A stretch of DNA of 64,000 nt from Heterodontus francisci (Eukaryota). The notes under the pieces are model-generated. The model was not told the DNA's origin and did no database searches. It saw only the letters and a list, made by a program, of their open reading frames with translations. The position numbers and the translations under genes are program-made. Shown here piece by piece: positions 6,968 through 63,658 of this stretch. Each line of letters begins with the position of its first letter. The stretch's first letter is position 1. The DNA lies in the NCBI RefSeq assembly GCF_036365525.1, contig NC_090418.1, positions 5,805,492 to 5,869,491 on the forward strand. Direction: 5' to 3'.

Positions 6968-8280
6968 CACAAGAAACGAGCAGAAGTGGACCATATGACC
7001 CATCGAGCCTGCTCCGCCATTCAATACGATCATGGCTGATCTTGGGCTTCAATTCCACTTTCCTGCCCGCTCCCCATATCCCTTGATTCCCTGCGAGACC
7101 AAAAATCTATACCAGCCTTACATGTATTCTCGACTCCCCAACTAGTCAAAACAATCTCTCCGCTTCAACCCTGTCAAGCCCTTTCAGAATCTTGTATGTC
7201 TCAATGAAATCACCCCTCATTCTTCTAAACTGCAGAGAATATAGGCCCAATTTACTCAGCCTCTCATCATAGGACAACCACCTCATCCTGGGGACCAATT
7301 TAGTAAATCTTCGCCGCACTGCCTCCAGTGCAAGTATATCCTTTCTTAAATGTGGAGACCAAAACTGCACACAGTATTCCAGGTCCGGTCTCAGCAAAGC
7401 TCTGTACAATTTTAGTAACACTTCTTTATTCCTGTACTCCAATCCCCTTGCTATAAAGGCCAACATGCCATTTGCTTTCCTAATAGCCTGCTGCACCTGC
7501 ATGTTAACTTTGTGTGTTCCTTGTATGAGTACACCCACGTGTCTTTGAACATCAACACTTAGCAGTTTCACACATTTTAAAAAATATTCTGCTTTTCTAT
7601 TTTTACGACCAAAGTGAACAACTTCACACTTCCCTACATTATACTCCATTTTCCATCTTGTTGCCCACTCACTTAACCTGTCTATATCTCTTTGCAGCCT
7701 CTCTACATCCTCCCCGCATCTTACCTTTCCACCGAGCTTAGTATCATCAGCAAACCTAGATACATTACTCTCTGTTTCTTCATCCAAGTCATTAATATAG
7801 AGTGTAAATAGCTGAGGCTCCAGCACTGATCCTTGTGGCACCCCACTATTCACCGCCAGCTAACTTGAAAATGCCCCATTTATTCCCACTCTCTGCTTCC
7901 TGTCTGTTAACCAATCCTCTATCCACGCTAATATATGACCCCCAACACCATGAGCCCTTACCTTGCCTATTAACCTTTTTTGTGACACCTTATCGAATGC
8001 CTTTTGAAAATCCAGGTATACTACATCTACTGGTTCCCCTTTATCTACCCTACTAGTTACATCCTCAAAGAACTCAATAAATTTGTCAAACAGGATCTCC
8101 CTTTAGTAAAACCATGCTGACTTGTTCGAATCATATTATGCTTGTGCAATGTTAAGACTTCATTAATAATAGTTTCCAGCATCTTCCCAATGACTGGTCT
8201 GTAGTTCCCTGTTTTCTCTCTACCTCCTTTCTTGAAAAGCGCTGTAACATTTGCCAACTTCCAATCTGACAGGGAAATTC
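6968..8280 (-). mobile_element. CR1-clade LINE, 5'-truncated (RT fragment and 3' tail)
   Basis: ORFs 8057-8257 and 7146-7853 contain WQMANVTALFKKG-like, QHGFTKGRSCLTNL, GVPQGSVL and FADDTKLG motifs. Confidence 0.9.
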
Positions 8281-12834: not shown

Positions 12835-15800
12835 CTGGAAGTGAAGGCATCCTGTTAGCGTTCACACCAAACTGTCGGCCGCACTCTCAGCTGTTCACCC
12901 AACCCCGCTCACCGCAGTTAGTGACACTACCAGCTGCATATCTGTGCAGCGTGTAATAATTAAGAGGCCGCTCAAACTTTTTTTGAAAAACTCTTCCCCA
13001 AAGTCAAGTACCTCAAGACAAGGTTAACAATGACATTGTAGATACAAAGCAAATCAATAAAAGTGAGGGGGAGTTTATTCTCAACCCAGCCCATCCAACA
13101 AGAGTTACCAGTTCCTTCCCATCATCTTCGACACTCGCTAGTTTTTTCTCTCCACTACCCTGGACGAAATCCATTCCTCATTAATCACCGCGTGTGACAA
13201 TCAAATTAACCGTTAACTAGCTCGATTTCTCCTCTTCCCCCCCCTCCCCCCCCATCCCCGTCTTTTGTTCATAGTTTCATGTATAGAGTTGCCGATTTAT
13301 CTTGTCCTGCAGCCCCAAGCACAACCACTATGAAGAATTTTACAGCACAGCAACAGTCCACTGGTTTATGCTCCACACGAACCTCCCCTCCCACCCTACT
13401 TCATCTCACCCTAACAGCAGATCCAGCTTCCCTTAAATGCAAGTATGCTGTTCGCCTCAACTACATCTCTTGTGGACGCAACTAACTCATAGATGTTGAT
13501 ATTCAACAGATGCCACTACATCAAGCCACGTGGAAGAGTGCGGCAGTAGGAACGGACACCTGTTAACGTACCGGACATTCTCTTGAAGAAGGGCTCGGGA
13601 TTGCCATTCATGCACAGTTTGACGGCGGTTTGCATCATGCGCATGATCACTCCAGCGGCGTGTTCATCATTCTCCAGCTCTCCTGCTGACTAGATCAAAG
13701 GACGGACATTACAGGACGACAGGGATAAGCAAGCGACAAGTAGGTAAGAGACTTGCTGCCTTGACACTGACGCTAGGATAGTAATCAGCACTGTGCCAGC
13801 CATGACTCAGTGGGTAGTATTCTCTCACCATTGAGTCAGAAAGTTGTGGGTTCAGAGTCCCACCCCAGAGACTTGAGCACAAAAATCCAGGCGGACATTC
13901 CCGTGCTGAGGGAATGCTGCACTGTCGAAGGTGCCCTCTTTCAGACAAAACGATAAACTGAGGCCATGGTCTGTGACCTTACTATCTGATAGCTGCTGAA
14001 ACTTCCCTTTTAGCCAAATAACCAGAGGACACAATCTCAACATGAAAGATGGGATTTTTTCCTTTTAAACGCAGTGAGTTGTTGTGATCTGGAACACGCT
14101 GCCTGAAAGGGTGGTGGAGGCGGATTCAATAGGAACTTTCAAAAGGGAATTGGATAAATACTTGAAGGGGAAAAATTTGCAGGGCTATGGGGAAGGAGGT
14201 GTAATTGGATAGTTCAAAAGAGCCGGCACAGGCACGATGGGCCAAATGGCCTCCTTCTGTGCTGTATTATTCTATGACAGCCTGGGGAAGTTTCATACAT
14301 CACAGAGACCGCAAGGACTGAACAGCTGAGCCAAGCTGTTCAGTGCCGAGGATGCCAGAAAATTCATGGGCACCTCCAGCAGAGAGCTCACCTGTGTTGA
14401 CGTTGCCTCTCTGACCACCTGCCTTGGCCATTCTTGTGACATCTGATCTGTTACACCCCATTGACTGTCCCAGTTAACAGGGAGAAGTGCAGCAGACACC
14501 TCAGCCTTTCTGTTATTCAGGGTTCTCTCAAACCTCTCCTCCCAAGCTCCAGCATTTTACAGCCCTGTGATTTGACAAGATCCCAAAGATCCACTCCCTT
14601 TGCTTTGTTCTTTGAAATACTTGTGTCAGCCATTATACTTACAGACAGTACTCCATCTTCACTAATGACCAGGTAACCTAGTTGATCTGGGATCCTCTCC
14701 AACCCTTGAGTCAAAGCAGAAGCCTATTTACAACAAAGATAAAGAGGAACAATATAAAAGGAAAAATATAATAGCTGTTGGGCACTAATCTGAATAGTGG
14801 ACATTGCACTAGGAACATCCAGGCCTTAGACAGAATGCAAAGGAACATCACAAGGTTGATCCCAGCTGGAGTAATAAAGGACCTAAATAGTATTTACCAC
14901 AGAAACAGGCCATTCGGCCCAACTGCTTCATGCTGGTGTTTATGCTGCACATGAGCCTCCTCACCTCACCCTATCAGCATATCCTTCTATCCTTTCTCCC
15001 TCATGTTTATTCAGCTTCCTCTTAAATATGTCAGTGTTACTCAACCACTCCCTGTGGTAGCAAGTTCCACATTCTCACCTCTCTCTGGGTAAAGAAGTTT
15101 CTCCTGAATTCCTGATTGGATTGGTTAGCGACTGTCTTATTTTAATGGCATTTAGTTTTCAAATCCACTGCCCCCCCCACCCCCACATTTACCCCCTCAA
15201 ACCCTTTTACAGTCTTAATGACCTTTCCTTGATCATCCCTCAGTCTTCTCTTGAGGAGGCAGTCCTAGCTGATTACACCTATCCTGAGAGGTATATCCTC
15301 TCAGTTCTGGTATCATCCTTGTGATTCTTTTTTGAATTTGGATTTATACAACACCTTTCACGACCTCAGGATGCCCTAACACACTTCACGGTCAATTAAG
15401 TACAGCAGCCAACTTGTACAAAATCACAATGTGATTTTGACCAGATCATTTGTTTTAGTGATGCAGGTATATTGTCCTGAACACCAGGGGGAACTCCCCT
15501 ACTCTTTATAGAGAGACACAGAAATTTAGAGCACACAGGGAGGCTATTTGGCCCATCATGCCTGTGTCAGCTGACAAAGGGCTATCCAGCTTAATCCCAC
15601 ATTCCAGCTCTTGTTCCATAGCTCTGCAGGTTACAGCACCTCAAGTACATAGCCAAGTATCTTTTTAAGTGCGTTGAGGGTTTCTGCCTCTACCACCCTT
15701 TCAGGTAGTGAGTTCCACACCCCAAATCCAATCCCCCTCAAACTCCTGGCCGCACAATCCTTTTCCCAATTGCCTTAAACCCAGGTCACCTGGCTACTGA

Positions 15801-23867: not shown

Positions 23868-26800
23868 TCACATATTGTATGTTTTCTTTATCTCTGCTTT
23901 TATGGTTTCCTTCTCTATAGTTTTCCAGTCAGCAGGGACATCAGCTTTTTTGGCATTGTAAGCCTCAGCAAACTCTTCATTAAAAGTACACAGGACGTAT
24001 TTCCAGTAGGATGCTGCTTGGATGCTGGTGTCTGGTGGAATATTCCAGGAGGCAAAGTAATTATTTACACTGCGGTAGTCTTTGCATGGGTGAAATTCAT
24101 ATTGTGTTTCTGCACAGCGGAATAAAGCATCAGATGCTACTGAAGAAGTACACACTTCCTCTACAAGCTTTTGACTGGAAAGATAGCAAAATTTATACAG
24201 ACCCTGGGGCCGATGTGCTGCAGCAAAATGCTCCTTGTGGCCCGAACCGCCTCGTTCACAAGGCACTCCACAGAACGGGCACATCTTCCCACAGCCGAGA
24301 ACTTGGCGGAAGATTTCTTCATCTGGCTGCACTGGCAGACGAGGCAGAATTTCCTCGATGTCACAGTCTTTGTTGAAGTTTGATATGAGATTCCACTCCA
24401 CATCATCCAAGGCTGCGGCAACATCAGCTGCAAACTCGTTTGCTTTAACAGCATTTTGAAAGCATACAATTTCCAGACTCCCCTTGTCAATCACAAAATC
24501 ATCCTTCAAAATATCGCAAAATTCTGTTAAAAATTCTGACACATTTTCCTTATCACTTGCCGTTGCTTGTTCGATGGCAACTTTTGTCTTCCGTATCAGT
24601 GCTTGGATTATTTTTGTGGCAATCCCTACGATTTTAGTTTTTTCTGTGTAATTCCTTATTATTCTCTTTCTGATCCACTGTTTTGCAAAATCTTCATAGT
24701 CTGTAATGTAATGTTTGTAATTTTCCATACAATGCTCTTCCAACAGTTCTAGTAAAATCACAGACTGGAGGTAGGCTCTGCTGCTCAGTTCATGATTCTT
24801 ACAGCTGGCTTTTACATCCTCAATTATCTCCACACCAAGCTTTTTGTCAGTGGCATTCTGAAAAGCTGGGTGGAGGCAGTTGTTGCACAAAGCTTGAGCC
24901 CTTTTCTGACTTTGGTCTTTCTCCCAGTAAAGATCTTTAAAAGTGGAATAGTAGGCAGCTTTCATTTCTTCCAGACGTGTCAGTGGATCATTCTCTCTAA
25001 AGAAATCTTGGTGCATCTTTTGGAAAACTGGCAGGACGCGACCGCATATATGCAGCTTTAGATCCAGCTCAAAGTTCTCATTAGTGTGAAGCTTTCTATC
25101 ATGTAACTTTTCGTCAATTGTTTTCAGCAATATCTGACAGTAAGTTTGATCAAAGTCAACTTTGGCTTTAACCTTGACTTCTGCATACTCCTCACAGATT
25201 TTTATTACACTATCTGCAAACATTTGCACTTCATCCTTAGGTTGACCTTTAAAAAAATCCCAAATTTTGTGTAAAACCTTCGTAGTGATGTGATGCTTGG
25301 TAACTTCAAAGGGATCCTTCCCTCTTTCAGACAGTTTCCCAGCTCTATCTAACGTCTGAAACACAGCACTGCTCCGATTTCGCAGACTGTTTCTCAGTTG
25401 ATTTTCAAACTCCATTTCAATATTCTGTTTTTTGAATGTCATGCCCTGAAGTGGTTTTACTGTGTCTCTCCACATCTCTTCAAACTGTTCCTCCAGTGAA
25501 CTGTCATCGAGTTCAGTCTCCTGCTGTTTGCATCTTTGTAGAAGTTCACTGACCTGGTTTTGAATATTTCCCTGATACTCCTTCTGTATTCTAACCATCT
25601 TGTCTATGCCTTTGCACCTCTGGATTGCATTGTTGCATCTCTGCTTGCAGTAAATCTCAAGCTCATTTCTCAAACTCCCAGCGCTCAAGGTGAAGTCAGT
25701 TTTGAATTTCTCTACGAGGTGGATATTTTCTGTTTTGCTGTTAAAATATTGAGCCAGGTGATTGAGAATCTTTTGTTTCTGATCTTGGAGGATGCTATTT
25801 GATTCTTGGATCAGAGTCTGATACAGTTCATCAAGCTGATTTAGAGGATGGTTGTCGATATTATTCTCAGCCTTCTCAACCCAGGAATGCATGACCTTCC
25901 TAAAATGCCACTCCCACTTCGAGTACTTCAGACTGAGCTGGCTGTAGGCATCTGCAACTAGACTGTTCCTGAAACTGAAAATGAAATTTTCATATTTTAC
26001 AGCATTCCATAAACTCTTCATCCATTCTGTGAATTGGAGAATTGTAAATGGCTCTCTTTTTCCTTTGCTCTGTTTAAATAAATCAAACAAATATTTCTTC
26101 AGCTCGAATATATTTTCACTGTAGCCAGTGTTTACAGGTGCCATGGGAGGAACACCGTGCCACAGGCCTGGAATGTACCAGTTGTTTTTTTCAGGGTCGT
26201 ACTCCATGACATCTGAAAACTTTGTGAACTCAATGTCTTTCTTCTCCATCTTTGCTGCTGCTCTTGTCATTTCATTTAGCTGATCAAGGAGGTGTTTCCT
26301 GTCTCTCATGTTCTGATCGTGTGCCGACACTTCTCCGACATTCTGATGGATGAACTGGCAGTTCGGTCTGCGCCCGACTTCTTTCATCCTCAGGAAGGCG
26401 TGCACCACTATCTGCAAGACATCCTTCATTTCAGAAGAGTTTTCCATGGCCATGTTGACTAATGTAACATCACTCAATCCAACAACCAGAGTTGCAAGCT
26501 CATTGTCATGTTCATGGCTGTCTTCCAGCTGAGCCAGTTCTGGAGCTTTTAATCCTTCTGTGTCAATAACCATGAGATACTCACAACCAATCTCCTTTTT
26601 CAGATCGCCTGTAATCTTAATCAACTGCATGAAGGCTCCTCTTGTACAGCGCCCACTGCTCACTGCAAACTGTAAACCAAACATTGTATTCAACAGAGTG
26701 GACTTGCCTGTGCTCTGTACACCCAGTACGGTTAAAACAACTATTTTAGTATTTGGTCCCAATTTCTGTGAAAGATTTTTAAGCACAGCGCTGACCCACT

Positions 26801-28594
26801 CTTCAGATATACTGGAAGCATCGCCATCCAAAAGTTCAAGTGGAAAGCCATCTAACATCAGATCAGCAGCAACTTTTGGAAGTGATAAAAACTGGCGACT
26901 ATTTTCCAGCAGAAGATGTTCACGAACTAAAGTTATCTCAGCTTCGTACATCTGCCCTATTTCCCGCATGAAATGCTCTAGCCCCAGAGAACTGTCCGAT
27001 ATTTGTTTGTCGAGTTCTATGAGCTTTTCACTTTCAGCAGGTGAGGCATTATACTGTTGTTTGTAATTCTCTCGCAATTCAGAAAGCTCCTGTCGCGCAG
27101 TGGCATCAAGAAAATATTTGATCCACTTCAGGAAAAAGCGTCTTTCTTCATTGGTCGTGTTTGCCATTTCAGTGACAAACTCAGAAAGGCTGTCAGTAAT
27201 ATCATATTCTCTCTGTTTCTTCCGCAGGTTTTTTTGTTCTTGTCTAAGCTCGTAGTTGTACATTTCTACAGGCTTATCTCCACGCTTTCTCTGCCGACAA
27301 AGCTCCTTATCTAACCTGGACCATTTTTTCCAGAGCTCTCCTTGTAATGGTAACTTTTCCATTTTGTACTCTGCGACACTTTGCGTGCCTTTTATGGCAA
27401 CAGTAATTTCCTCTGCCGCTTCTTTTGCTCGTTGGCACCTTGACTCATCTTCATCAACACTTATTTCTAACTCCCGAGCTACAGCAGCCATTTCCTCAAT
27501 GCTCATCAGGTTGGTCGCGTCTTCCAAAGTGTCCCTGATGCTCGCCTGGATCTGTTCAACAAACTCTGATGCATTTATGTTTTTATTTTTAATGATTACA
27601 TCATTCCTGTCCAGTTTCATTAACGGGGCAAGTTTCTGTAGAAAGCTGCCAGTCGAAGCCTGCTGCTCAGGTGGTGGATTCAGGATTAGGAAGTATCGTG
27701 TTTGCATTTCTGCAATGGAGTCCAGTAACTCAAATTCATCAGTACCTATTTGATCGACAAATATAAAGACTGCTGAGGATACCTTAGCCAAGAAGTGGAC
27801 TTGAGAGTGTAGCACGCTTGCATCACCGCGGAGGTTGGCAATGAGAACAGGTTCTGTGAAGATATCAATATTTCTCTTGCCACAAGGGAGATACACGCAG
27901 AACTCAACTAAACCATCAGAAATTTTACGAGGAATGTCACCACATTCCATGCTGTTAGTGATAAAGAAATTGTGATGATGGTGTGGGTTGCTTAACACCT
28001 CATTAAGAATCTTTGATTTAGATGTACTGCAACTACCTAAACGAATAAACGAAATCACATGCATCGGTGTGGTTGCCATTGCTGCCTCTTTAAATCCTTT
28101 ACTTGCTTCTAGTGATTTAGGCCTCCACTTCTTCACAATGAAACGCATGGCCCACAGCAGTAAGGTGGGGCCATCCTTACTGTAGTCTGGTAATAAGAGA
28201 GGCAAAGCAAATTGGCACATGGACATCTTCATCATCATCTCTTGCTGCAGGAAGCTATCAGCACAAAGGAAAACTGCAGTAATGACATCCAGAGGATTGC
28301 ACAAATCACCAGCCTCTTTTCCCTGGATATCAAAAAGGTTAGAAAAGTTTGTTTTATCAGCGGTCGGCGTTCTGTCTTTAGCAGCGTCTGCTGAGCATTT
28401 GATGTTTCTGGCCGTCAAGTTGAGAATCATAAGTTTCTTTAGAAAATACCACGGAGCTTCTTCCAGGGTTTGAGGCTTTGCACAGACCATGGTTTCTGGG
28501 CCAATTTCAAGAACTTTGTTTAAAGAAAGTTTCTCTGTGAAGTGTTTCTGCAGTTTCAGCTTGGAAAGTATTTCCTGAAGATTCTTTTCTTTGA
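23868..28594 (-). CDS. Giant terminal exon: URGCP/GVIN1-like (up-regulator of cell proliferation / interferon-induced very large GTPase 1-like) body
   Basis: Inside the uninterrupted 1611-aa ORF. Family motifs NPLDVITAVFLCADSFLQQE..CQFALPLLLP, G1 VLGVQSTGKSTLLN, FAVSSGRCTRGAF, G3 IDTEGL, HDNELATLVVGLSD and LWNAVKYENFIFSFRN, plus C-terminal CPFCGVPC..HRPQGL. The ORF-track start at 28703 is intronic. Confidence 0.93.
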
Positions 28595-31500
28595 CTGTAG
28601 AATGAGAGATGAAAATGCTTGTGATATGCACAGTAAATGCCTGCATTTTATGATGCCATTGTCTGTCCCATTTGGGACTAATACAGTTTTCAAAAAGATT
28701 CAATTGTTTACATTGAGTTACACAAAGTTTATAATCAGAGATTCCCCCCGATAGTCAAGTGTCCGTCTACTCTAGTGAGAATGAGTTCCAGGATTTTTTC
28801 CATATCAGTTATTTCAAACCCAGAAACTCCTGATCCAGAGCCAATTGCATCAAACAGTTTATTTTTGATTTTAACACCTCCAATTCAGAAAGTTTATTCC
28901 TAATACTGTATGTTTATTTCCTTCTTTGCTTAAATGCCACCATCTTCTTGCATCTCCTAATGGGTCACAGCAGTTAGATTGTCCATGATTGAGGAACAGG
29001 AGGAGGCCATTTAATCTCTTGAACCTGTTCCACTGTTCAATGGCTGACCTATGACCTAACTCCATATACCCGCCTTTGCCCCATATCCCTTACTCAGCTA
29101 CCCATTACCCTTAAACCTCTTCCAGATGTTCATCCCTCCTGCACCATAAAAATTGTTTATTTTCCTTACCCACTAAATATCTCATCCAACTCTTAACAAT
29201 TGATTACAAAGGATTGCATACAATATACAGCACAAAGGTCATTTGACCAACCATGCTGGCGTTTCTGCTCCACTTGAGCTGTCCCCCCCGTCTTTCTTCC
29301 TCTAACTCTATCAGCATAATCCTCTATTCCCTTCTCCCTCACGTTTGTCTAGCCTCCCCTGAACTGCATCTATACTATTCGCTTCAACCACTCCCTGTGG
29401 TAGTGAGTTCCACATTCTCACCACTCTTTACATCAAGAAGTTTCTCCTGAATTCTCTGTTTGATTTCTTGGTGACTATCTTATACTTATGGCCTCTTGTT
29501 TTGGTCTTTCCCAAAAGTGTCTACTCTTTCAAAACCTTTCATAATTGTAAAGATCTTGAATAAGTCACTCCTCAGCTTTCTCTTTTCAAGAGAAAAGAGA
29601 CCCAGCCTGTTCATCCTCTCGTCATAGGTATACCTCATATTTCTGGTATCATCCTTGCAAATTTTTTTTGCACTCTCTCTGGTGTCTCTATATCTTTTAT
29701 ATAATATGGTGACCAGAATTGTATGCAATACTCCGGGTGTAGTCTAAGGTTCGATATAAGTTTAACAGGAAGTTAGATGAGCTGCTTTCCAACCCTCAGA
29801 GATTTCCCCTTTATCTGACTAACGTTTAATAACACCAATCAAAAAGGTTTCTCTGAATTCTATCCTGTCATCCTTAAAACCTTGTTGCTGCACATTGAAT
29901 GTTTTTTGTCTACTTGAAGTCATATTGGCTCAGTGCTTAGTATCATTGCATATGGATCAGAGAGTTGTGGGGCTTGAGCCAGATTGCATGAGTTTGAGAT
30001 CATTGAGCAGACACTTGAGCGCAGTACTGAGGGAACTTTACGTTGTCGGGGAACTGACCTTTAGATGATAAGTTAATTAGAGATCCTCTCTGCCTGTTCC
30101 AGTGGTTTGGTTAGACATTAAGGAGGGGGATCTTTGACTTGAGCCTTAAAACAGGCAGCAAGTCAACAGAGTGATTGATTTGCATGTTAGTCAGAGCCAG
30201 CCTGCAGAGTTCATCTGAATGGAACCAAACAGTCATCCCTTTAAAGCTCCTGATGACTTCCAACTAGCTCTGACTCCCAGTCGGTTACAGTTAGGACCTG
30301 GGAGGTGGAGCGGGAGTGGGTGGTGGGAGGGGAGCACTTGGGGTAAAGCATTCTATATTCTAATAAACATCTAGACCTTGGCACCTTATCCTAGTTGAGC
30401 ATCCACAATGCTGCTAACTCATGTTATACCTACATTGTATAAAACTCCATGCTTAGAAAACTGAGTGGTATGAAATTGTGATGTTGTATTGAGCATAAGA
30501 GAATCCTCTGCTATTGTAAAAGCAGTGTTAGTCCATTTACACTAAATCAGTCACAACTTTTGTTACAGTGTAGAACAAAGGAATTTTGTACGTAACGCAT
30601 TTGTTTATGACATTGCACAATGTGAGTTCAATCCAAAGTTTTTCTCACTTTCAAGACATGGGTATTAGAAATGTGAACCAGTAGGCAAAGGGAACTAATC
30701 TGATTCGTAAACAGGCCCGCCATTGTACAGATCACGATAGGCTCCGTCTAGTCAACACAATAAACTGTTATTTGTTGCAGACTCGGTTCATTAAATGATT
30801 CACCTGTCACCCCTGTGCTTGCTGACCTATGTTGGCTTCTGGTCAAGTAATATCTCGATTTTAAAATTCTCGTCCTTATTTTCAAATCCCTGCCTTGACT
30901 ATCTCTGTAATCTCCTCCAGCCCCACAACCCTCGAGATATCCTCTAATTCTGGCCTATTGAGCATCCCCGATTTTAATGGGTCCACCATTGGCATCCATG
31001 CCTTCAGCGGCCTGGGCCCCAAGCTCTGGAATTCTCTGTCTACAGCTTTGCGCCTCACTTTCCTCCTTTAAGATGCTCCTTAAAATCTATCGCTTTGACC
31101 TAGCTGTTGGTCACCTGTCCTAATCATCTTATGGGGCTTGGTGTCAAATTTTGTTTTATAATGCTCCTGTGAAGTGCCTTGTGAGATTTTATTACATTAA
31201 AGACGCTATATAAATCGAAGTTGTTGTTGATAATGCACCTTCTCTTCCGATACCCTGTTTCTTTTCTTGTTCTTGATTGAGCAAGAGCTCCTTGGCAGCA
31301 GTGGTCCCATTTGCATTACTGTGGCAAGGTTCACCTGAATAAGGAGTATAAACAGTTCTTGTAAGTTCTACAATGCATTGAAATACCACTACTTCCACAA
31401 AAGGTTAGGAAGATAGGAGCAGGAGGAGGCCGTTCAGCCCCTCGAACCTCTTCTGCCATTGAGTGAGATCATGGCTGACCTGTGACCTAACTCCATATCC

Positions 31501-32491
31501 CTTGATGTTAAACTCCAAAAGCGTGTCTGCAAAGTCAACACACATTTGTCTGACAATGTCTCTGCCTAACAGATGGAAGATTAAGAATACAATGAAAATG
31601 GTCGCAAGCAGGCATTTAATTTAATCAAGTACTTAGCATCAGAAAGGCTGAAAAGATCACAGGTTGTACCTCCATCCGAGTGTTAAAGATCGGGGGATTA
31701 GAGTTTCTGCTTTGGCCGCAATTGTCAATCCGGCCGCAAATAGCACCCAAAATTTTCCAAAGTGAAATTATGGTTCAAGGTTCCACTCAAACTCATTCGC
31801 ATAATCACAAAGGTAAAATTTTCCACAAACTGGGCAGAATTTTATAATGTAATTGTTTATTTCTCTCCCTTTCTTTTAAAAAATTGCTGCATCTAAGAGC
31901 AGTAACGTGGTGCAGCTTTACTAATATAGCTGCACTGCGCAGAACCATATACTAGTTTCATTAGTGCATGCAAGCTTCTTAGGAAATGAAATATTTTTGT
32001 AATTTTTAAAAGGTGCGTACTGGCGCCCTTGCGCCTAAATTTTTAATTTTAGGCATCTCAAAGAGCTGCAAATGGGCACAATTAGTAGAAATGAGCAATG
32101 CTGATTCATTCGATCTTGGTTATAAGATTAAGCATCTTGCAATCTAATTGTTAACATAGTAATATTGACTTACAAGGTCCCACTCACCTATTGCTGCAGG
32201 ATAAAACCCAGACAATACCTCATTCAGTCCTGGGAGCTCACTTTGTAAGCTTTGTAGAACTGCAAGAAAGCTGCCACAAGCCTCCTCTCCCTTCTGAACC
32301 ACAATGTTTATAAGTGTTCTGATCTCTGCCATGGGGTCTGCTATCCCGTCTATCTGATCATACTCCTTGCTTGTGATGATAAGCGTCGCATCCAACTCAT
32401 CAAGGATGATGTTTGGTTGTTCTTTAAGAATGTTCATGAGTTTTCTGCGTATTCTCCGTACAATGTCTGATGGACGGTGTTCTCCAGCCAT
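23868..32491 (-). CDS. CARD-containing URGCP/GVIN1(VLIG)-family very large GTPase; join(32188-32491, 31239-31334, 23868-28594), ~1708 aa
   Basis: CARD exon starts at an ATG in ACAATGG and ends at ATAG|gtgagt (phase 1). A 96-nt phase 1-1 exon follows. The acceptor ctcattctacag|TCAAA opens a 4727-nt exon in matching phase 1. Total 5127 nt, no internal stops. Extra small exons cannot be excluded. Confidence 0.8.
30800..31229 (+). mobile_element. L2/CR1-type LINE 3' fragment
   Basis: CACATCACCCCTGTGCT-like and CTCTGGAATTC motifs; ends ATATAAATCGAAGTTGTTGTTG. Similar tails lie at 9955-10250, 42828-43060 and 63660-63870. Confidence 0.7.
31239..31334 (-). CDS. Linker exon of the CARD-GTPase gene (GEPCHSNANGTTAAKELLLNQEQEKKQGIGRE)
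   Basis: tattcag|GTGAAC...GAGAAG|gtgcat; 96 nt, open and phase-compatible on both sides. The donor is weak. Confidence 0.55.
32188..32491 (-). CDS. CARD (death-fold) domain exon
   Basis: MAGEHRPSDIVRRIRRKLMNILKEQPNIILDELDATLIITSKEYDQI...IRTLINIVVQKGEEACGSFLAVL shows the CARD pattern (ILD.L....II...EY..I; R.L...V..KGE.AC..FL..L). An acceptor at 32513/32514 implies an upstream non-coding exon. Confidence 0.88.
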
Positions 32492-34320
32492 TGTGTGGGA
32501 CAATTAGTAACACCTACAAAAAAAAATACAAAATCATTAGCCCACTAGCCATTAAATTTTGAATTAAATTGGAAACGTTAATTTTCTGCGTGCCATTCTG
32601 GCCGCCTTTTACAATATTGTAAATTCTGATTCCTAGCCACAGACTCAGAAGCACACTCCCACAGTGCCAGTGAGAAATACTAGATGAAATTTAGTGCCAA
32701 CTGGACTGTGATTTTTTTATTTTCTTTTTCATTCGTGGGATGTGGGCATCACTGGCTAGGCCAGCATTTATTGCCCGTCCCTAATTGCCCTTGAGAAGGT
32801 GGTGGTGAGCCGCCTTCTTGAACCACAGTGCTGTTAGGTAGGGAGTTCCAGGAGTTTGACCCAGCGACAGTGAAGGAACAGCCGCTATAGTTCCAAGTTG
32901 GGATGGTGTGTGACTTGGAGGGGAACTTATAGGTGTTGGTGTTCCCTTGCCTGATTCTCGCGTCAGGTATAGTTAAAGAACTAGCTGATTTTGTTTCTAT
33001 TTGGAATAAATTGAAAAGGGCCATTGGCTTTGTGGGAAAAAAATTGCTAATTTTTTGTTTTCCTTTCGGGAAGAACCAGAAAAGCTGAACCTCATTTTTT
33101 TGCTGGTGATGCCAGCTACAATTATCCACTTTGCCGTGATTCGTGTCATTTCATTATTGATTGCAAACAAATGGGTACATTTCCACTTTGGAATCCTTCC
33201 TTACGCTTCCCTGGGGGAGAGCTTTGTGCTGTGTCTATTTCTAGAACACCAGTGTACGAATACTCTTGTGTGCTGCCACCAGATATTAAATAGGACATAA
33301 ACTGTGATTGCCACTGTTAGCATGGGGGTCTTGCTAGATGCAATTATGATCATAGATCAGACTTCAAGGTTGAAGCCGCAATTCTACTTGCTGTGTTTGA
33401 CATTTATCTCACACCTGATAAGGTTTTGTGACTGAAGTGGAGCTTTGCAACCTCCACTGTTAACATGGCCCAATTTTCAGACTTTGCTGAATATTTTCCA
33501 TGGCAGGTCTGATTGGCATCAAGCAGAGGTCGTCATGTCCTTGCCTATCTCCTTTGCAAAACTGGCAAAGTGACATGGAAGTCATTTCTACCAGAGAACC
33601 ACACCCAATTATCCTCTGGACTTGACAGCACCATGTTAAGGGCTGCCAGCATTCTGGAGACCATTTCCAGAGAGCTGATGCTGAGTGATATGCTATATGA
33701 AGAGCCAGCAGTGGGTGTCAGCCGTGGCTCATCTGGTGGCGCACGCTCCTCTGAGCCAGCAGGTCATGAGTCCAAGCTCCACTCCAGACCTCCACCTGTG
33801 ATGTGTATTGCTGATCTCACCAGCATATGTGGGGGTCAGCTTAATGTCATTGGTATGGTGAGCCACCGACACAACCCCAGTGCAAAACAGGAGTAAACCG
33901 CGAGGGGTACGGGAGGGGGAGCTTGTTAGTACAAAATTTAAAAGCCTGACGAAACTTAATGGCGGCAGTTTTCTGGAGGGCAGCCAAATGGATAATTTCT
34001 CTTCAGCTGTACATAGAATCTTATGGTACAGAAGGAGACCATTCACAAGAGACCACTCCCCCTGCTCATCCTCCACAGCCCTGCAAATTATTCCTTTTCA
34101 AGTATTTATCCAATTTCCCTTTTGAAAGTTGCTATTGAATCTGCTTCCACCGCCCTTTCAGGCAGCGCATTCCAGATCACAACAACTCGCTGCATATGAA
34201 AAAATCTCCTCATCTCCTCCTGTGGTTTTTTTTGCCAGATATCTTAAATCTGTTTCCTCTGGTTACCGAGCCCCCTACTAGTGGAAATGTTACTCTTGTC
34301 AAAACCCTTCAAAGTTTTGA

Positions 34321-38520: not shown

Positions 38521-39339
38521 GCTAACTGGAATGATGAGCAAGCTGCTGATGGTGTGACCATGGACCTCTTTCCATCTCACCCTCCCCTTCCCTCACCCCA
38601 ACATTCCCCTTTCTGATTTTCTGTGCTCAAACACCCAAGAACTGGGCCAGAAGGAAGAGAGAGCAACAGCACAGCACTGATGAAGAGGCCCCGTCACTTG
38701 AGCAAAATTTGAAAACATAGCAAGATTGAAATTATTTATCCTTTGGCTCCAGCAATCTATTGGAAACAAAAACTGCTCCACATGAACTTTAGATCAGTTG
38801 GAGGTTTGAATTCTGTATCTCAGTTCTACCTGACTAAACACAACCTTCTTACATTACCTTACGTAGAATATACAGCATAAGAAACAGGCCATTCGGCCCA
38901 ACTAGTTCATGCCAGCGTTTAAACTCCACTCGAGCCTCCTGCTGTCTTTCCTCATCTAATTCTATCAGCATAACCCTCTATTCCCTCCTCCAATTTCATT
39001 TCACGCTTCTTACAACGAGTCAGATTACTATAATTACTGAACTACTTTCACAGCAGTGCACCGTTAAAATATTCTGACGGGTACTTCAAACACTGACATT
39101 TTAAATATTCATTGAACAAATTTAAAGTATTTGTCAGAAGCTTTCCTCTTCACGGAGGCCACTAAAATGAAATTTATAGATTTCATTCAGAAACTGCTAC
39201 AGTAAAAATAAGTGACAATGCTTCAAGTCATCCAAACCTTCAACTTTTCCCTTCTTTGTCAGGTATGAGGTTATGCTATTCACTGCACCCGCTTGAGGTT
39301 AGCTGCTGTTCTCAGTTGGAAATGTCTAGCATTTGCATA

Positions 39340-39460
39340 GCATCTTATATAGTTAACAACTGGCCCGCCCATAATCCCAGCTTCATCACATGGTTTCCAA
39401 AAAGTACTTAGTTTAGTTTCTATTTCAAGAATAGTTAATCATTCGACTTCCTTTCACTTA
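39340..39460 (-). promoter_or_regulatory. Candidate interferon-responsive promoter (TATA, GC box, ISRE, IRF/ETS composite)
   Basis: TATATAAG on the minus strand at ~39344-39351; GGGCGGGCC at 39362-39370; AGTTTCTATTTC at 39415-39426; ACTTCCTTTCACTT at 39446-39459. Confidence 0.45.
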
Positions 39461-39819: not shown

Positions 39820-40119
39820 TTCAGTCCATGGAAAAAAATACTCTATAAACAGAATGCCTGGATAATTCCTCAGAGGATCTCCCAGTCTGCCCCAGCGTAA
39901 CTTTGTTCAAAGAGGACACCGATTTAAGGCAAAAAAAAGCACGGGCGACATGAGGAAAGGCTTTTTTTAAGCAGCGAGTGGTTAGGATCTGGAATGCACT
40001 GCCTGAGAGTGTGGTGGAGGCACACAGGGTCTTCCGCTTCCACGATGGTTGATCTCCGGAGTTTTCGCTGGCTCTATGCCCAAAAAGCTCTATTCTTATC
40101 CTGTTGCTTATCTCTATCT

Positions 40120-40830
40120 AGTGTGGGAAAATGGCGCACTGACACGGAACACAAAAGTCCGAGTGTATCAAGCCTGTGTCCTCAGTACCTTGCTCTATGG
40201 CAGCGAGGCCTGGACAACATATGTCAGCCAAGAGCGACGTCTCAATTCATTCCATCTTCGCTGCCTCCAGAGAATACTTGGCATCAGGTGGCAGGACCGT
40301 ATCTCCAACACAGAAGTCCTCGAGGCGGCCAACATCCCCAGCTTATTCACACGACTGAGTCAGCGGCGCTTGAGATGCCTTGGCCATGTGAGCCGCATGG
40401 AAGATGGCAGGATCCCCAAAGACACATTGTACAGCGAGCTCGCCACTGGTATCAGACCCACCGGCCATCCATGTCTCCGCTTTCAAGACGATTGCAAACG
40501 GGACGTGAAGTCCTGTGACATTGATCACAAGTCGTGGGAGTCAGTTGCCAGCGTTCGCCAGAGCTGGCGGGCAGCCATAAAGGCGGGGCTAAAGTGTGGC
40601 GAGTCGAAGAGACTTAGCAGTTGGCAGGAAAAAAGACAGAGGTGCAAGGGGAGAGCCAACTGTGTAACAGCCCCAAAAAACAAATTTTTCTGCAGCACCT
40701 GTGGAAGAGCCTGTCACTCTAGAATTGGCCTTTATAACCACTCCAGGCGCTGCTCCACACACCACTGACCACCTCCAGGCGCTTGCCCATTGTCTCTCGA
40801 GATAAGGAGGCCAAAGAAGAAGAAGAAAAA
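40120..40830 (+). mobile_element. RTE-clade LINE 3' fragment
   Basis: KVRVYQACVLSTLLYGSEAWT, LNSFHLRCLQRILGI, GHVSRMEDGRIPK, C-terminal CSTCGRAC..RIGL..H and a (GAA)n tail. A related fragment is at 57630-57800 (-). Confidence 0.9.
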
Positions 40831-41360: not shown

Positions 41361-41412
41361 ATTCCTGAAATTGAAACCGAAACTGCATATGACATTTACT
41401 GGAAGTCACGTG
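41361..41412. promoter_or_regulatory. ISRE/GAS cluster (candidate distal promoter or enhancer)
   Basis: GAAATTGAAACCGAAACT at 41367-41384, TTACTGGAA at 41396-41404, GTCACGTG at 41405-41412. Confidence 0.5.
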
Positions 41413-56044: not shown

Positions 56045-59000
56045 CTGGAATAGAGGAAAAATACAAAATTTGATTTACTCAATACCTTCCGTTTAACAGA
56101 GGTCACATCTCCCATAATATCTTAATTTTGGGACTTTGTCCTTCAGAATCTGCCTTTTATAGCAGGTTCCATCTGGAAAATAAAATGGGGAAAATTGCTC
56201 CCAAGTATCTGTCATTTCAAGAGTTTATTTTCTGTGTAGTTGGGTGTGCACTACAGAACAAGTCATTTGGGCACTGCATTACACATGCTGTTAGAGTAAT
56301 TAGCAGACAGCTAACAGAATAATTCATTTGGAACTGAACTCCAAATCTTGATTTTTTAAAAAAGCAAGCAGGTTGTTTTACTACAAAACCCTAGTACAGG
56401 TCAGCAGCCTCAAGAACCTTTAAAATTGGGTCAAAATTGCAATTAAGAGGTATAATGCCTCATTCAAATACCAAACAATAAATTTTTAAAAAGCCTTAAT
56501 GATTAGACAAACCATTTAGTTACCAAAATGGGTTTGATTGATCCAAGTCAAGAGCCTGCTTTTAGATTTTAGCCTAGGGAAATAGCCTGGGGCGGCACAG
56601 TGGCGCAGTGGTTAGCACCGCAGCCTCACAGCTCCAGCGACCCGGGTTCAATTCTGGGTACTGCCTGTGTGGAGTTTGCAAGTTCTCCCTGTGTCTGCGT
56701 GGGTTTCCTCCGGGTGCTCCGGTTTCCTCCCACATGCCAAAGACTTGCCGGTTGATAGGTAAATTGGCCAGTAGCAATTGCCCCTAGTATAGGTAGGTGG
56801 TAGGGAAATATAGGGATAGGTGGGGATGTGGTAGGAATATGGAATTAGTGTAGGATTAGTATAAATGGGTGGTTGATGGTCGGCACAGACTTGGTGGGCC
56901 GAAGGGCCTGTTTCAGTGCTGTATCTCTAAACTAAACATGACACTACTTAATTGGTGAAGGAGGATTAAAAAGTCAAACTGCAAGCCAGTGGGAGATCCT
57001 CTTCAATGATTTCCCCAACCTGGGAAAGCTACAAGATTACCTTCCCAAATCTACAAGTTGAATGTATTTTAGTAGTCACTTTGAAAGCTTTCTACTTCTG
57101 ATTGTTAGTAGATCTGGAGTTAGTGGAGGCCAAGGCTACTCTTGGGCACAATGCCTGCCCCCCCCCCTGCCAAAAAAAAAAAACAAACTAGGTCCCAAAA
57201 GCAGTGTACTAACTACTACAAACCATTGCTAAGACTCTGGCAGGGTGTCCAAATAGTAGCCCATGGGTCACAAGCAGCCCCAAATTCTGCCAAACTGATT
57301 CTTGAATCCCATTTGACTGTTACTTGCACTGACTTGCAATGTTAGTTTGTCTTGTGACTGAACTTGGAGGCTTGATAGGGTGGAAAGAAAAAGAAACTGG
57401 CTGTTGCAGTTGTGAAAATCACATGCCCAAATGGAACTAATTTTGTCACATTGAACACTGCTCGAAACTTACTGGACATTGCCAATAACCTTTTAAAGCA
57501 GAACTGAAAAGTTTTAAAAATGGCCAATCACATTTGTATTTTGGAGACGACAAAGGCTGGCCAAGAGACAGATGTAAATTGCCAGTCTAGCTGGAACAAC
57601 GTGGGGTGCTCCCTGATTCAGTTAGTATTCTTTGGCCTCCTTATCTCAAGAGACAATGGATACACGCCTGGAGGTGGTCAGTGGTTTGTGAAGCAGCGCC
57701 TGGAGTGGCTATAAAGGCCAATTCTAGAGTGACAGGCTCTTCCATGGGTGCTGCAGAGAAATTTGTCGGGGCTGTTGCACAGTTGGCTCTCCCCTTGCGA
57801 TTGATTTTTGTCAATAATGGGTGATCAAAAGACATTAATACCTCTTGACTTTAAAAGCCAAGGCAACCCTCTTTTCCCCCTCCCCCCAATGACTGTCTGA
57901 AAGACTCAAATTCAAACCCTCCAAGAACTGCAGTTTCAACCAAAGATGGTCACATGACACCTGCTGGCACAAGTCAGATTTTTGAATTGTGCCACAGAAA
58001 GTAAGAGACTGCAACTGAACTTGGAGAAAAGTATGTCTGTCTCTCTCCAGAGAAGTCTCAGGGAAACCAGTGGCTGCCTCTAAACCTCAAGACTACAGAA
58101 CGTCACAGGCGACCATGAAGACAGTTGAAGCCTACCTTGGGCCTTCTGGAAGCAGAGAAGCAAGCCTGAAATGGTGCACGTGGCCCTAGCAAGGACTCCA
58201 AGACTAACTTTAAGGACATTACAACCCAGTATTTGCTTACCATTACCAATCTTACTTCAACCTCCCAACTCTTCCCGTGTCACATATTTTAGTAATTTTA
58301 ACTGGTTTAGAGTGATAAGTTAATAAAACTTACATCAGGTTCAAACCCAAGAAAATTACAAATGAACCAGTGAGCAAGGGCTCACTGAGGTACTAAGCTA
58401 AAAAAAAAAATTACTGTTTAAAAAGATAAACCATGTTATGGTCAAACCAGAGAAGGAGAGAGGGGGGAGCCGGAGATCCCTTCCTCACCTGGTTGTAAAT
58501 GCTAAAACCAGAACACCCAAGATCTGTAAATTACATAAACATTGATTTAGATGGCTCCTTCCTCCTCGAATACACTTATGAACAAGGGGTTGATAAGGGG
58601 GAAAAAAACTTCATGCAATTCTGAACACAGGCAAGTACCAGTACATGCAATGTATGCACCCTAAATAACCCCAGTTCATTTTAACAAGTTAAATATCACA
58701 AGTTCCACTCCAAGTTACCTGTTATAAACCAGATGAGAGAGAACAGCGATACCAGAGTTTGCCAAATGTGGCCAATTTTATGGAAGGCCAAAATGTTGCT
58801 CTCATCATTTGGGGTACACGAAACCAGTGATACCATCACAAAGAAGAGTGTAAAGCTTCCAGAAACAATGAGGTAAATTGGAATCAAGTATTGCTTGGTA
58901 CAAGAATCTAAATACACAGTGCCTGTAAGAGGAGGAAGAAACAAGGGAAAATATTAATAAAGAGACAAATAAATAAATAACAAAGCATGTTTCACACTAT

Positions 59001-60596: not shown

Positions 60597-62414
60597 TTCC
60601 TATCCACAGGACCTAGGATTAGGAGCAGCAAGTCCACATTAACAGGCAAGCACCCATCTATTTTGGCAGTCTGAGTCCTACCTTCAGTCAGTTTGTTTGG
60701 ATCCCATTGGCAAGGGTAGACAACACATTAATACTGACTAAGCTACTTACACTCAAAACACCTGACTTTCTTAATTAGCACACAAGCTCCAGATGTAACC
60801 AGACCCAGTCAAATCTTTTAAAGGACAACCTTTTTGAAGACAAATTGGGAAGAACACAAAGGTAATAAATGTTGCTTGACCTGCATGTTTCTAGCATTGG
60901 CTGTGTTTTCTCTTTGCAACACTAACAGTTCAGCATCACATGCAGAGCGTCCCATCCACAGACTTCCTTTTTCTTGCAAAAAGCCACAATTAAAAAAAAA
61001 ATAAACTTTGACTAAAAGGCATCTTAAAGTAGGCCATACAGCCCCTCGAGCTTGCTCTACCAATTAAGTTCATGGCTGAATTTTTACCTCAACTCCACAT
61101 TTCTTCCCCCAACCTCCAAAAAAAAAACACTCATTTATGAATATACTCAACTGAACATCCACAGCCTTCTAGGAATAGAGAACGCCAAAAGATTCCCAAA
61201 CTTCTGAAATTACTCCTCAGTCCCAAATGGCCAACCTCTTAATGAGATGAATTCTAGTTCTCGACTATCCAACCAGGGAGTGGCCTAGGAGATGGTGAAC
61301 TTTTGTACTAGATTGGTCCTTGGGATGACTGAGATTGAATAGAGTGGACTTTTTTTTTTAATCCCTAGAGTTAAGACTGAGGTAATCTAATTAAATGCAT
61401 AATTCTTAAGGGGCCTGGACTGGATATGTAGTCAGTGCACACGAACAGGAATAATTTAAAGTTTTTTTCTAAAAAACTAAAAAAAGGAGGAATAACTTGT
61501 GTTACGGTAAAAGTAGCTGTTAATGTTTTGATAGCGTGGGATGATCTGACACGGGTGGGGGGAGAACATACTTGCCTGGGAGCAAAAAAAAATGTTAAAT
61601 ATTTCAACAGTGGATAACGTCATGTTAAATCAGGTGTTCCACAAACCTAGTTGATATGAAAGCCAATAAGAAGTATACTTCTCACTCTTCTACTGAAGTT
61701 ACCTGCAGCAATCGTCCGGAATTATCAGAAGTTTAAAAAAAAAAGAACCCAATAGGAAGGAGGCTTAAAAATAAGAGCCAGAGAGTCAAGTTTCCTCCTT
61801 CTTGTATGCGAAATAGAGGAACGAAAAGCCAATATATAAGCACTTTAACTCAACTGTTCTTTCCAACAACAAAATGGGGAGGGGAAGAAATAGTCTTGCA
61901 TTTATAAGGCGCAAGCAAACGACACACAAAAGTCACATCCAAAATGATCTAATAGAACTTGAATTTCAAATACCCGCAGTGCACTGACAATCAAACTTTT
62001 TTTTCCTCTCCTCTCGCCCAAATAAAAGTTGTTGAAACCAAAATGAGAATTGCCGATTAAAATAAAAACTCTTCCGAGTTAAACTGCCAAGGAAACCCAG
62101 ATTAAATGCATCACAAAAATACCAACCAGTTTAACAGATCGTCAACGTTGACACCAAACAAAAAGCAGATTAAAATCAGGTAGCGTAGCCTAACCCAACT
62201 TTATTAAACTTCCTTCCGATTTCTTCACCCGAAATTCTCGTGTTTAATTTTTGCTTTTAATTGGTTGATTGTTGGGAGCCACTCAAACTTTTGCGGCACA
62301 CTTTAGTCACATGTAGAGAAGCAAAAATATGCCTTTTAGTTTTTACTTGGATTCTGTGGTTTATTTTGGTTTTCAGCTGTCACACTGCCTCAATAACAAC
62401 CTTTATTTATATAG

Positions 62415-63658
62415 GACGCATCTGCTCTGATGATGCTACCTTCCATGACGGTGCTTCTGATCTGACCTTTTTCCTCAACCAAGGATGTCCCCCCACTGTG
62501 GTTGACAGGGCCCTCAACCGTGTCCGACCCATTCCCCGCACCTCTACCCTCACCCCTTCCCCTCCCTCCCAGAACCGTGACAGGGTTCCCCTTATCCTCA
62601 CTTTTCACCCCATCAGCCTCCATATCCAAAGGATCATCCTCCGCCATTTCCACCACCTCCAACGTGATGCCACTACCAGTCGCATCTTCCCCTCTCTTCC
62701 TCTGTCAGCATTCCGAAGGGATCGTTCCCTTCGCGACGCCCTGGTCCACTCCTCCATTACCCCCACCACCTCGTCCCCGTCCCATGGCACCTTCCCCTGC
62801 AATCGCAGGAGGTGTAATACCTGCCCATTTACCTCCTCTCTCCTCACTATCCCAGGCCCCAAACACTCCTTTCAGGTGAAGCAGCGATTTACTTGTACTT
62901 CTTTCAATGTAGTATACTGTATTCGCTGCTCACAGTGTGGTCTCCTCTACATTGGGGAGACCAAGCGCAGACTGGGTGACCGCTTTGCGGAACACCTCCG
63001 CTCAGTCCGCAAGCAGGACCCTGAGCTTCCGGTTGCTGGCCATTTCAACACTCCCCCTTGCTCTCATGCTCACATCTCTGTCCTGGGATTGCTGCAGTGT
63101 TCCAGTGAACATCAACGCAAGCTCGAGGAAGAGCATCTCATTTACCGATTAGGCACACTACAGCCTGCCGGACTGAACATTGAGTTCAATAATTTCAGAG
63201 CATGACAGCCCCCCATTTTACTTTCATTTTTAGTTATTTTTTCTTACTTTTTTCTACATTCTTTTTTACATTTTTTACAATCTTTTTTTTGCATTTATTT
63301 CGTTTCATCTTAGTTTGTTCAGTTTGCTTACCCACTGTTTTTTTCAGGTTTGCACTTGCTGCTGTTCAATATTCAGTGTATTAACACCTAATCTGTACTA
63401 ATGCTTTGTCTTTCAACACACCATTAACATATTGTTTGCCTTTGCTCCGTGACCTTTTGGTCAGCTATGTGGCCTGGTCCAATCTAGACCTCCTTTGTTA
63501 TCTCTTGCCCCACCCCCACCTCACTTGCTTATAACCTGTGACTTTTCTAATATTTGTGGAGTTCCAATGAAGGGTCACTGACCCGAAACGTTAACTCTGT
63601 TTCTCTTTTCACAGATGCTGCCAGACCTGCTGAGTGGTTCCAGCATTTCTTGTTTTTA
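62415..63658 (+). mobile_element. Penelope-like retroelement, 5'-truncated (RT C-terminus plus GIY-YIG), with 13-bp TSD
   Basis: ORF to 63205 has RICSD, YCIRCSQCGLLYIGETKRRLGDRFAEH and GLNIEF. TTTATTTATATAG at 62402-62414 and 63659-63671. Inserted into a LINE/SINE tail. Confidence 0.92.

Follow-up and report, generated by a model that had tools for sequence, protein, structure and literature searches.

CARD6, a mammalian protein that begins with a caspase-recruitment domain (CARD), is said, in work attributed to Dufner in 2006 and 2008, to be related to interferon-inducible GTPases, and the zebrafish proteins Gbp3 and Gbp4 are CARD-fused GBPs that act with ASC. The VLIG/GVIN proteins constitute one of four families of interferon-induced GTPases (PMC8286824). 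Human GVIN1 is described as having a predicted LG-helical-LG-C-terminal order (10.1101/2025.03.24.645074, Guo et al.) and as coating Burkholderia thailandensis with the help of interferon-induced cofactors (10.1101/2025.03.24.645074; PMC12133148); the word CARD is absent from the GVIN1 paper (10.1101/2025.03.24.645074). Here we analyze a 64,000-nucleotide stretch of the genome of the shark Heterodontus francisci (NCBI RefSeq assembly GCF_036365525.1, contig NC_090418.1, positions 5,805,492 to 5,869,491), referred to in full as the window, whose numbering is used throughout. A minus-strand gene within it encodes a single polypeptide that opens with a CARD and a degenerate G domain, continues with an intact GTPase of the GBP/atlastin/Sey1 kind and closes with helices and a tail rich in conserved Cys and His.

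The coding sequence of this gene is assembled from three minus-strand exons (32491-32188, 31334-31239 and 28594-23868) that join into 5127 nucleotides, and the resulting 1708-residue translation is a 100% match to the H. francisci RefSeq protein XP_067879694.1. Exon 1 (32188-32513) comprises a short 5' untranslated region, with an in-frame stop upstream of the ATG at 32491, and 304 coding nucleotides (32491-32188, codons 1-101) that end at a phase-1 donor. Exon 2 (31239-31334) contributes 96 nucleotides that encode a charged linker and run from phase 1 to phase 1, and the coding part of exon 3 (23868-28594), 4727 nucleotides with no internal stop, supplies residues 134-1708 and the stop codon, with contigs continuing to at least 23722. 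Both introns in the coding part (853 and 2644 nucleotides) are GT-AG, and the gene has three introns when the one that separates exon 1 from a non-coding first exon (39238-39306, minus strand) is counted. This first exon was located from the ends of the X1 and X2 contigs, whose letters beyond exon 1 match once, at 39244-39270, and its donor, after 39238, was read from the sequence; its 5' end is not fixed, as the contigs extend beyond the joint by anything from 63 to 270 letters.

Seven sequencing runs contain the stretch, all of them only presumed to be of RNA, and the contigs of six were examined. The joint between exons 1 and 2, an 853-nucleotide GT-AG skip on the minus strand, was present in 4/4 runs (two samples, two studies and two organisms); in the X1 and X2 contigs the 28 letters past exon 2 are those of 28567-28594, the start of exon 3; and a single X4 contig bridges all three exons (27751-28594, 92 further letters, then 32184-32519). 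Because the CARD exon was found only once in a search of the genome, a processed copy is an unlikely source of these spliced contigs. A first-pass annotation of this DNA had proposed that a CARD exon splices in frame, in phase 1, onto a 4.7-kb stop-free exon to give a protein of ~1708 residues, and had named the junctions 32188>31334 and 31239>28594 as the check; both joints are there in the contigs, the introns are GT-AG and the length is exact. Its view of the 96-nucleotide exon as optional was not borne out, for no listed contig has the in-frame skip from exon 1 to exon 3 (32188>28594), contigs being prone to drop rare forms. Likewise, no listed contig has an alternative, in-frame 81-nucleotide version of exon 2, an absence that in contigs is not proof. 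Nor has annotation missed the fusion or named it only 'URGCP-like', as had been expected, since RefSeq models it as 'interferon-induced very large GTPase 1'. The CARD-GTPase fusion is real and, as a gene model, already ordinary database content. The opposite reading, in which the fusion is an artefact of annotation and the CARD and GTPase exons lie on separate transcripts, is almost certainly wrong and already largely refuted, given exact GT-AG joints in the contigs of two organisms, one contig across all three exons and the same domain order in dozens of species; what can be said for it is the presumed nature of the runs and the X1, X3 and X5 contigs that lie over much of intron 2, so that unspliced or CARD-less forms may exist.

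That coverage of intron 2 (28595-30836 in the window), next to an almost uncovered intron 1, may reflect RNA that was not spliced, genomic DNA in the runs or a transcript with a different 5' end. Retention of intron 2 would stop the frame 14 codons in and yield a CARD-only protein of ~148 residues, the alternative being a CARD-less start.

The CARD itself (residues 10-86; 32234-32464, minus strand) is ARC/NOL3- and CARD6-like. It matches Pfam PF00619 with an E value of 2.3e-9 and 37.6 bits, above the cut-off of 23.9, so that the domain called by eye from the translation indeed scores as a death fold. Its closest solved relative is the CARD of ARC/NOL3 (4uz0, E 2e-9; caspase-1, E 0.015), and it is 31-42% identical to the CARDs of CARD6 proteins. 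A query with the CARD alone returned just 5 shark proteins among 75 candidates. Elsewhere in the genome, contig C7 carries at 86.86 Mb (L002:1486-1776) another exon that encodes a CARD of related type, with 31% identity.

Within the Pfam URGCP domain (PF25496; 380 bits, cut-off 27), predicted fold and motif alignment place a first G-like domain at residues 296-515 (27450-28109, minus strand). In this domain the motif GxxxxGKS is replaced by GxxxxSKS, and NLRG stands at the G3 position; the S-K-S is invariant in 51/51 aligned rows, those of CARD6 and URGCP included. A model of residues 135-1034 (predicted local-distance difference test score, pLDDT, 81.8; predicted template-modelling score, pTM, 0.84) contains two domains that share one strand-helix order. 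When modelled alone (pLDDT 85.8), the first domain has SMG9 as its best structural match (Z 13.2, root-mean-square deviation 4.5, 200 residues aligned), and its other matches are G domains of many kinds; the margin is nevertheless modest, given that a TIR domain appears at Z 11.2 among the 50 rows. Judging from these models, the first domain is likely a pseudo-GTPase with a predicted P-loop GTPase fold, and the 'URGCP domain' is predicted to be itself a degenerate GTPase fold.

The second G domain (residues 741-1010; 25965-26774, minus strand) is identified by both profile and structure. It matches the Pfam family URGCP_GTPase (PF25683) with an E value of 4.5e-195 and 648 bits, far above the cut-off of 55, and its motifs are intact: G1 is GVQSTGKS at residue 758 (26723-26700), the G2 threonine lies in RCTRG and G3 is DTEG at residue 811 (26564-26553). 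The complete VLIG-type GTPase that the first-pass annotation recognized from its G1 and G3 is what the profile finds. In a homologue search, 1198 of 7995 scored candidates passed an E value of 1e-20 and the best 120 of these were listed; GVQSTGKS is kept in 118/120 and DTEG in 115/120. The modelled domain aligns with Sey1 at Z 24.0 (root-mean-square deviation 3.1, 261 residues aligned) and with GBP1 at Z 22.6, and all four of Sey1, GBP1, atlastin and RNF112 match at Z 21-24. Its P-loop is Sey1-like and is without the P-loop arginine of GBP1. The domain is also the best conserved part of the protein, being 92-93% identical in three other sharks as against 62-78% for the CARD.

Toward the C terminus, an alignment reveals a Cys/His cluster (residues 1568-1635; 24090-24293, minus strand) within the GVIN1_C region, in which C1568, C1572, C1575, C1579, H1586, H1589, H1594 and C1615 are invariant in 55/55 rows; from this pattern they are likely zinc ligands. 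PF26772, which covers the region, and PF25974 are both annotated in the precomputed domain data of the protein. The protein thereby has the makings of a VLIG/URGCP family member, with URGCP and URGCP_GTPase domains, intact G1-G3 in a GB1/RHD3-like fold, tandem G domains (as predicted folds) and a Cys/His C terminus. No Pfam family of the NACHT/NB-ARC or leucine-rich-repeat kind was found on it at E 0.001, and the core model folds as a GTPase; no GBP family was found on it by Pfam either, and its CARD is N-terminal, unlike that of the CARD-fused GBPs.

To place the gene among its relatives, rows picked to span taxa were used for three sets of trees: the first G region was treated with 82 rows in a quick tree and 32 in a careful one, the second G domain with 31 rows, and the CARD with 48 rows and 90 columns, the last being weakly resolved. 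Each of the three follows the species tree. The shark gene, which has a single conserved orthologue across cartilaginous fish, clusters with those of other sharks and of chimaera (support 100/99) as sister to the bony vertebrates, and CARD6 and URGCP fall inside the tetrapods (100/99), nested among full-length genes and sisters of each other (87/81 under a mixture model, 96/93 under LG+G4). Placing CARD6 beside the shark gene was rejected by the approximately unbiased test (p-AU 4.3e-5), the two not being one-to-one orthologues, and so was placing it outside the full-length genes (p-AU 1.1e-5); these topologies were picked for testing once an initial tree had been seen, and the branches to both mammalian proteins are long. 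The alignment of CARD6 reaches at most shark residues 1-89 and 135-554, beyond which CARD6 diverges (8/8 proteins), homology ending at 514-554, and URGCP aligns at most to residues 134-971, without a CARD (7/7). Given these alignment ends and the nesting within tetrapods, CARD6 and URGCP are most simply explained as truncations of a CARD-bearing full-length gene. We consider it likely, therefore, that both are truncated descendants and that the shark form, co-orthologous to both, is of the ancestral type, and we hold this evolutionary part of our explanation with good confidence. Of the two origins suggested in the first-pass annotation for a CARD6-like architecture, the ancestral one agrees with the species-like branching of all the trees and with a nested CARD6, and the convergent one does not. 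The statement there that the canonical GTPase half is missing from CARD6 was correct: 8/8 CARD6 proteins give no match to it. That annotation did not notice URGCP as a second likely truncated descendant, the degenerate GTPase fold predicted for the 'URGCP domain' or the exchangeable nature of the N-terminal slot.

The resemblance between CARD6 and the shark protein extends to an N-terminal CARD of the same subfamily, a charged linker, URGCP_N and a degenerate G domain with SKS; indeed, CARD6 is the top Atlas look-alike of shark residues 1-480 (score 0.93). CARD6, however, ends after the degenerate domain in an unrelated low-complexity tail, whereas the shark protein goes on through a second G domain, which is intact, and for another 700 residues, and the CARD of CARD6 clusters with amniote CARDs that have no 3-residue insert, which sharks keep. 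URGCP (URG4) has in common with the shark protein the two G-like domains and, between them, the helical linker (35-39% identity over residues 134-971) but has no CARD and terminates after the second G domain, and its G2 and G3 are altered, with DSGG in 3/4 rows and DSEG in 1/4 where the shark protein has an intact DTEG.

With GVIN1 (VLIG-1) the shark protein shares the predicted LG-helical-LG-C-terminal order, a giant exon for most of the protein and Pfam families. GVIN1 differs in being described as intronless and with its own N-terminal domain, whereas the shark gene has three introns. Proteins of a long type (frog, 2407 residues; fish, 2347 residues), which serve only as an inferred stand-in for GVIN1 in trees that include no mammalian GVIN1, make up a clade of their own; a topology that unites the shark gene with them was rejected (p-AU 2.6e-4), and 133 residues precede URGCP_N in the shark protein against ~800 in the long type. 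The shark gene is probably not a GVIN1 orthologue. GBP1, atlastin, Sey1/RHD3 and RNF112 resemble it in the modelled fold of the second G domain, from which it departs by its additional G-like domain, by the CARD and by HQNV where G4 is likely to lie; unlike that comparison set, it has no transmembrane anchor detected by Pfam. The zebrafish CARD-GBPs likewise combine a dynamin-superfamily immune GTPase with a CARD in one chain, but they belong to the GBP family, are far shorter and carry the CARD at the C terminus, as an independent fusion.

Fusion of a CARD to a VLIG-type GTPase is common in the databases, not rare. Among the 120 listed homologues, 61 have a CARD (PF00619), and a CARD profile made from these sequences matches 62; the bearers are sharks, chimaera, coelacanth, caecilian, salamanders, turtles, lizards and crocodilians, some with two or three CARDs, the domain being duplicated or triplicated in reptiles. 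None of the 11 ray-finned fish proteins named in that list has one, and among the best 150 of 1768 representatives a CARD is found in 14, frogs and a Lampetra model included. All of these architectures are as predicted in gene models. The same GTPase core otherwise carries PYD, PYD-RING-B-box (TRIM), Ig, FN3, AIG1 or RRM in its N-terminal slot, PYD, a second death fold, occupying it in turtle and frog relatives. The lamprey proteins lie on the URGCP side of the tree, where their placement is poorly resolved, so that the case for one origin of the fusion is good within jawed vertebrates but no more than plausible for vertebrates as a whole.

One lamprey model (Lampetra fluviatilis XP_078736050.1) combines CARD, URGCP and GTPase, which suggests that the CARD-GTPase layout is older than jawed vertebrates. 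In models from Bombina, Xenopus, Phyllobates and Hyperolius a kinesin motor precedes the CARD and the very large GTPase in one chain; 3/4 have an FHA domain, they are KIF13-like and the motor motifs are largely intact. These could be read-through models, against which their recurrence in four frog genera argues, or possibly represent a motorised immune GTPase.

What might such a protein do? We give a little less than an even chance to its being an interferon-induced GTPase that assembles on a microbial or membrane target and clusters its CARDs to recruit a CARD partner. In this scheme, interferon would induce the gene, as a promoter site and the example of GVIN1 suggest. GTP would then drive the second G domain to dimerise and the protein to form polymers resembling a coat, by analogy with GBP1, atlastin and GVIN1; the first G domain, which on the models is probably unable to hydrolyse GTP, may serve as a built-in partner or scaffold, much as SMG8 does with SMG9; and the helical and Cys/His half would locate the target. 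In the least certain step, polymerisation would bring together CARDs held on a 40-residue linker and thereby seed a filament of a caspase-1-like protein, ASC or RIPK2. The promoter site is a match to the consensus of the interferon-stimulated response element (ISRE), GAAANNGAAACT, at 39415-39426 on the minus strand, ~180 nucleotides upstream of the first donor, where it is followed by GC-box-like and TATA-like stretches and could form part of a candidate interferon-responsive promoter. The window holds three matches to this consensus against 0.41 expected, and 0/100 shuffles reach three; the other two lie upstream of the gene at 41373-41384 and 57387-57398, on the plus strand.

Several observations weigh against this reading, or against parts of the argument that leads to it. 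A match to the ISRE consensus is not induction, and the X1 and X2 contigs may extend over the site. The analogy with GVIN1 crosses subfamilies, and when the two G domains were compared profile against profile, no more than the P-loop, 17 columns long, could be aligned (E 0.055, not significant), so that their likeness rests on the models; the sisterhood of CARD6 and URGCP, both on long branches, may in part be an artefact. As to the CARD, its closest solved counterpart belongs to the inhibitor ARC/NOL3, 59 of the 120 listed homologues have none, no CARD was found in the ~10 kb fetched ahead of the genome's own paralogues, and the Ig, FN3, AIG1, RRM or kinesin N termini of relatives resemble targeting parts rather than outputs. 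Reports on CARD6 conflict, making it an activator or an inhibitor of NF-kB, and CARD6 knockout mice are described without signalling abnormality (PMC6949089).

The variety of N termini bears directly on a different possibility, namely that the CARD is an input, which docks the GTPase on death-fold filaments (of ASC, RIPK2 or MAVS) or baits pathogen proteins, with the GTPase body as the effector, coating the target or remodelling it. An exchangeable slot, open to Ig, FN3, AIG1, RRM, PYD-RING-B-box or a kinesin motor, would suit such a role, as would the 14 changes in CARD presence needed on the 82-row tree (some of them owing to incomplete gene models). Between two organisms, A and B, 11 of the 13 listed differences in the CARD exon alter the residue and 2 are synonymous; the corresponding partial list for the C-terminal part has 12 non-synonymous differences, 7 synonymous ones and one at the stop. 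However, the 11:2 count is not distinguishable from neutral (sites 236:67, on a list that is likewise partial) and gives no sign of positive selection on the CARD. The CARD has moreover been retained from lamprey to reptiles and multiplied in the latter, and mammals retained the CARD and the pseudo-G domain after the enzyme was lost. We judge the input role unlikely.

The kinship of the CARD with ARC/NOL3 raises the further possibility of a brake, in which an ARC-like CARD caps caspase or RIPK2 filaments and is released or concentrated by the GTPase cycle. The large difference between the E values for ARC/NOL3 and caspase-1 speaks for it, as does one study, cited in PMC6949089, in which CARD6 was found to inhibit NOD1/RIPK2 signalling. 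Yet likeness in CARD sequence does not set the sign of action, a decoy needs no 195-kDa GTPase, and the GTPase is the best conserved part of the protein; we consider a brake rather improbable.

Finally, the protein could be a constitutive cell-biological GTPase that acts on membranes or the cytoskeleton, or in growth control as the name URGCP implies, with no special immune role. The shark gene lies between MBLAC1 and LAMTOR4/TRAPPC14, and its location next to housekeeping genes, its one conserved orthologue across cartilaginous fish, the Sey1-like P-loop and the presence of contigs in all six runs examined are consistent with this. The lineage-specific expansions and domain swapping seen in reptiles, amphibians and fish point to immunity instead, as do the ISRE-consensus site and the death folds, which leaves a purely constitutive role distinctly improbable.

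A literature search found no description of full-length CARD-VLIG proteins, nor of CARD6 and URGCP as split descendants, most subscription papers being outside its reach, and we put the chance of a prior mention of the full-length architecture at about one in three; the architecture is apparently uncharacterised though common in databases. A broader idea, which we regard as somewhat doubtful, is that these proteins form an undescribed NLR-like receptor class of non-mammalian vertebrates, in which a pseudo-GTPase/GTPase core that polymerises on pathogens would replace the NACHT ATPase and an exchangeable N-terminal module (CARD, PYD, TRIM or, in frogs, kinesin) would lead to signalling or transport; the shark gene would be the conserved founder form, dismantled in mammals into CARD6 and URGCP. 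If true, this would explain why CARD6 and URGCP are each without a clear function alone. These two poorly understood proteins in any case gain a likely common full-length ancestor that is still extant, making the original role of CARD6 testable. Should GTP-driven assembly seed CARD signalling, it would constitute a third vertebrate route from the detection of intracellular microbes to inflammation, beside NLRs and the GBP coats that recruit caspases in trans.

Of the flanking genes, LAMTOR4 has an exon at 14520-14723 (minus strand), the exons of TRAPPC14 lie just outside the left end of the window and MBLAC1 lies ~60 kb past the right end; the survey of the flanks took in 132 of the 1165 open frames with few repeats, and its gene list past MBLAC1 is not complete. 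On the human map MBLAC1 and LAMTOR4/TRAPPC14 are neighbours, with no linkage to either CARD6 or URGCP. The neighbourhood of CARD6 presumably differs, then, from that of the shark gene, and on this map the gene moved in one lineage or the other. MRPS24, presumably a neighbour of URGCP, is on contig C47 of the shark genome, a contig other than that of the shark gene. The markers RPL37, MACPF and AMPK-sensor had no match on contig C48 among the best candidates scored, and neither PRKAA1 nor the true RPL37 was located, which leaves the CARD6-type locus of this shark without a map position.

A search of the window against Rfam gave no matches. Contigs C29 and C130 carry seven or more paralogues, each a very large GTPase encoded by a single exon, those on C29 at 29.3, 50.5, 52.4, 53.3 and 54.5 Mb; two paralogues are nearly identical, and one is broken by frame changes and a stop. 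The window also contains retroelement remnants at 62261-63205 (plus strand), 7146-7859 (minus strand) and 40007-40768 (plus strand), with weak matches to GIY-YIG, reverse transcriptase and DUF6451, and ~46% of it is repeated within the DNA fetched.

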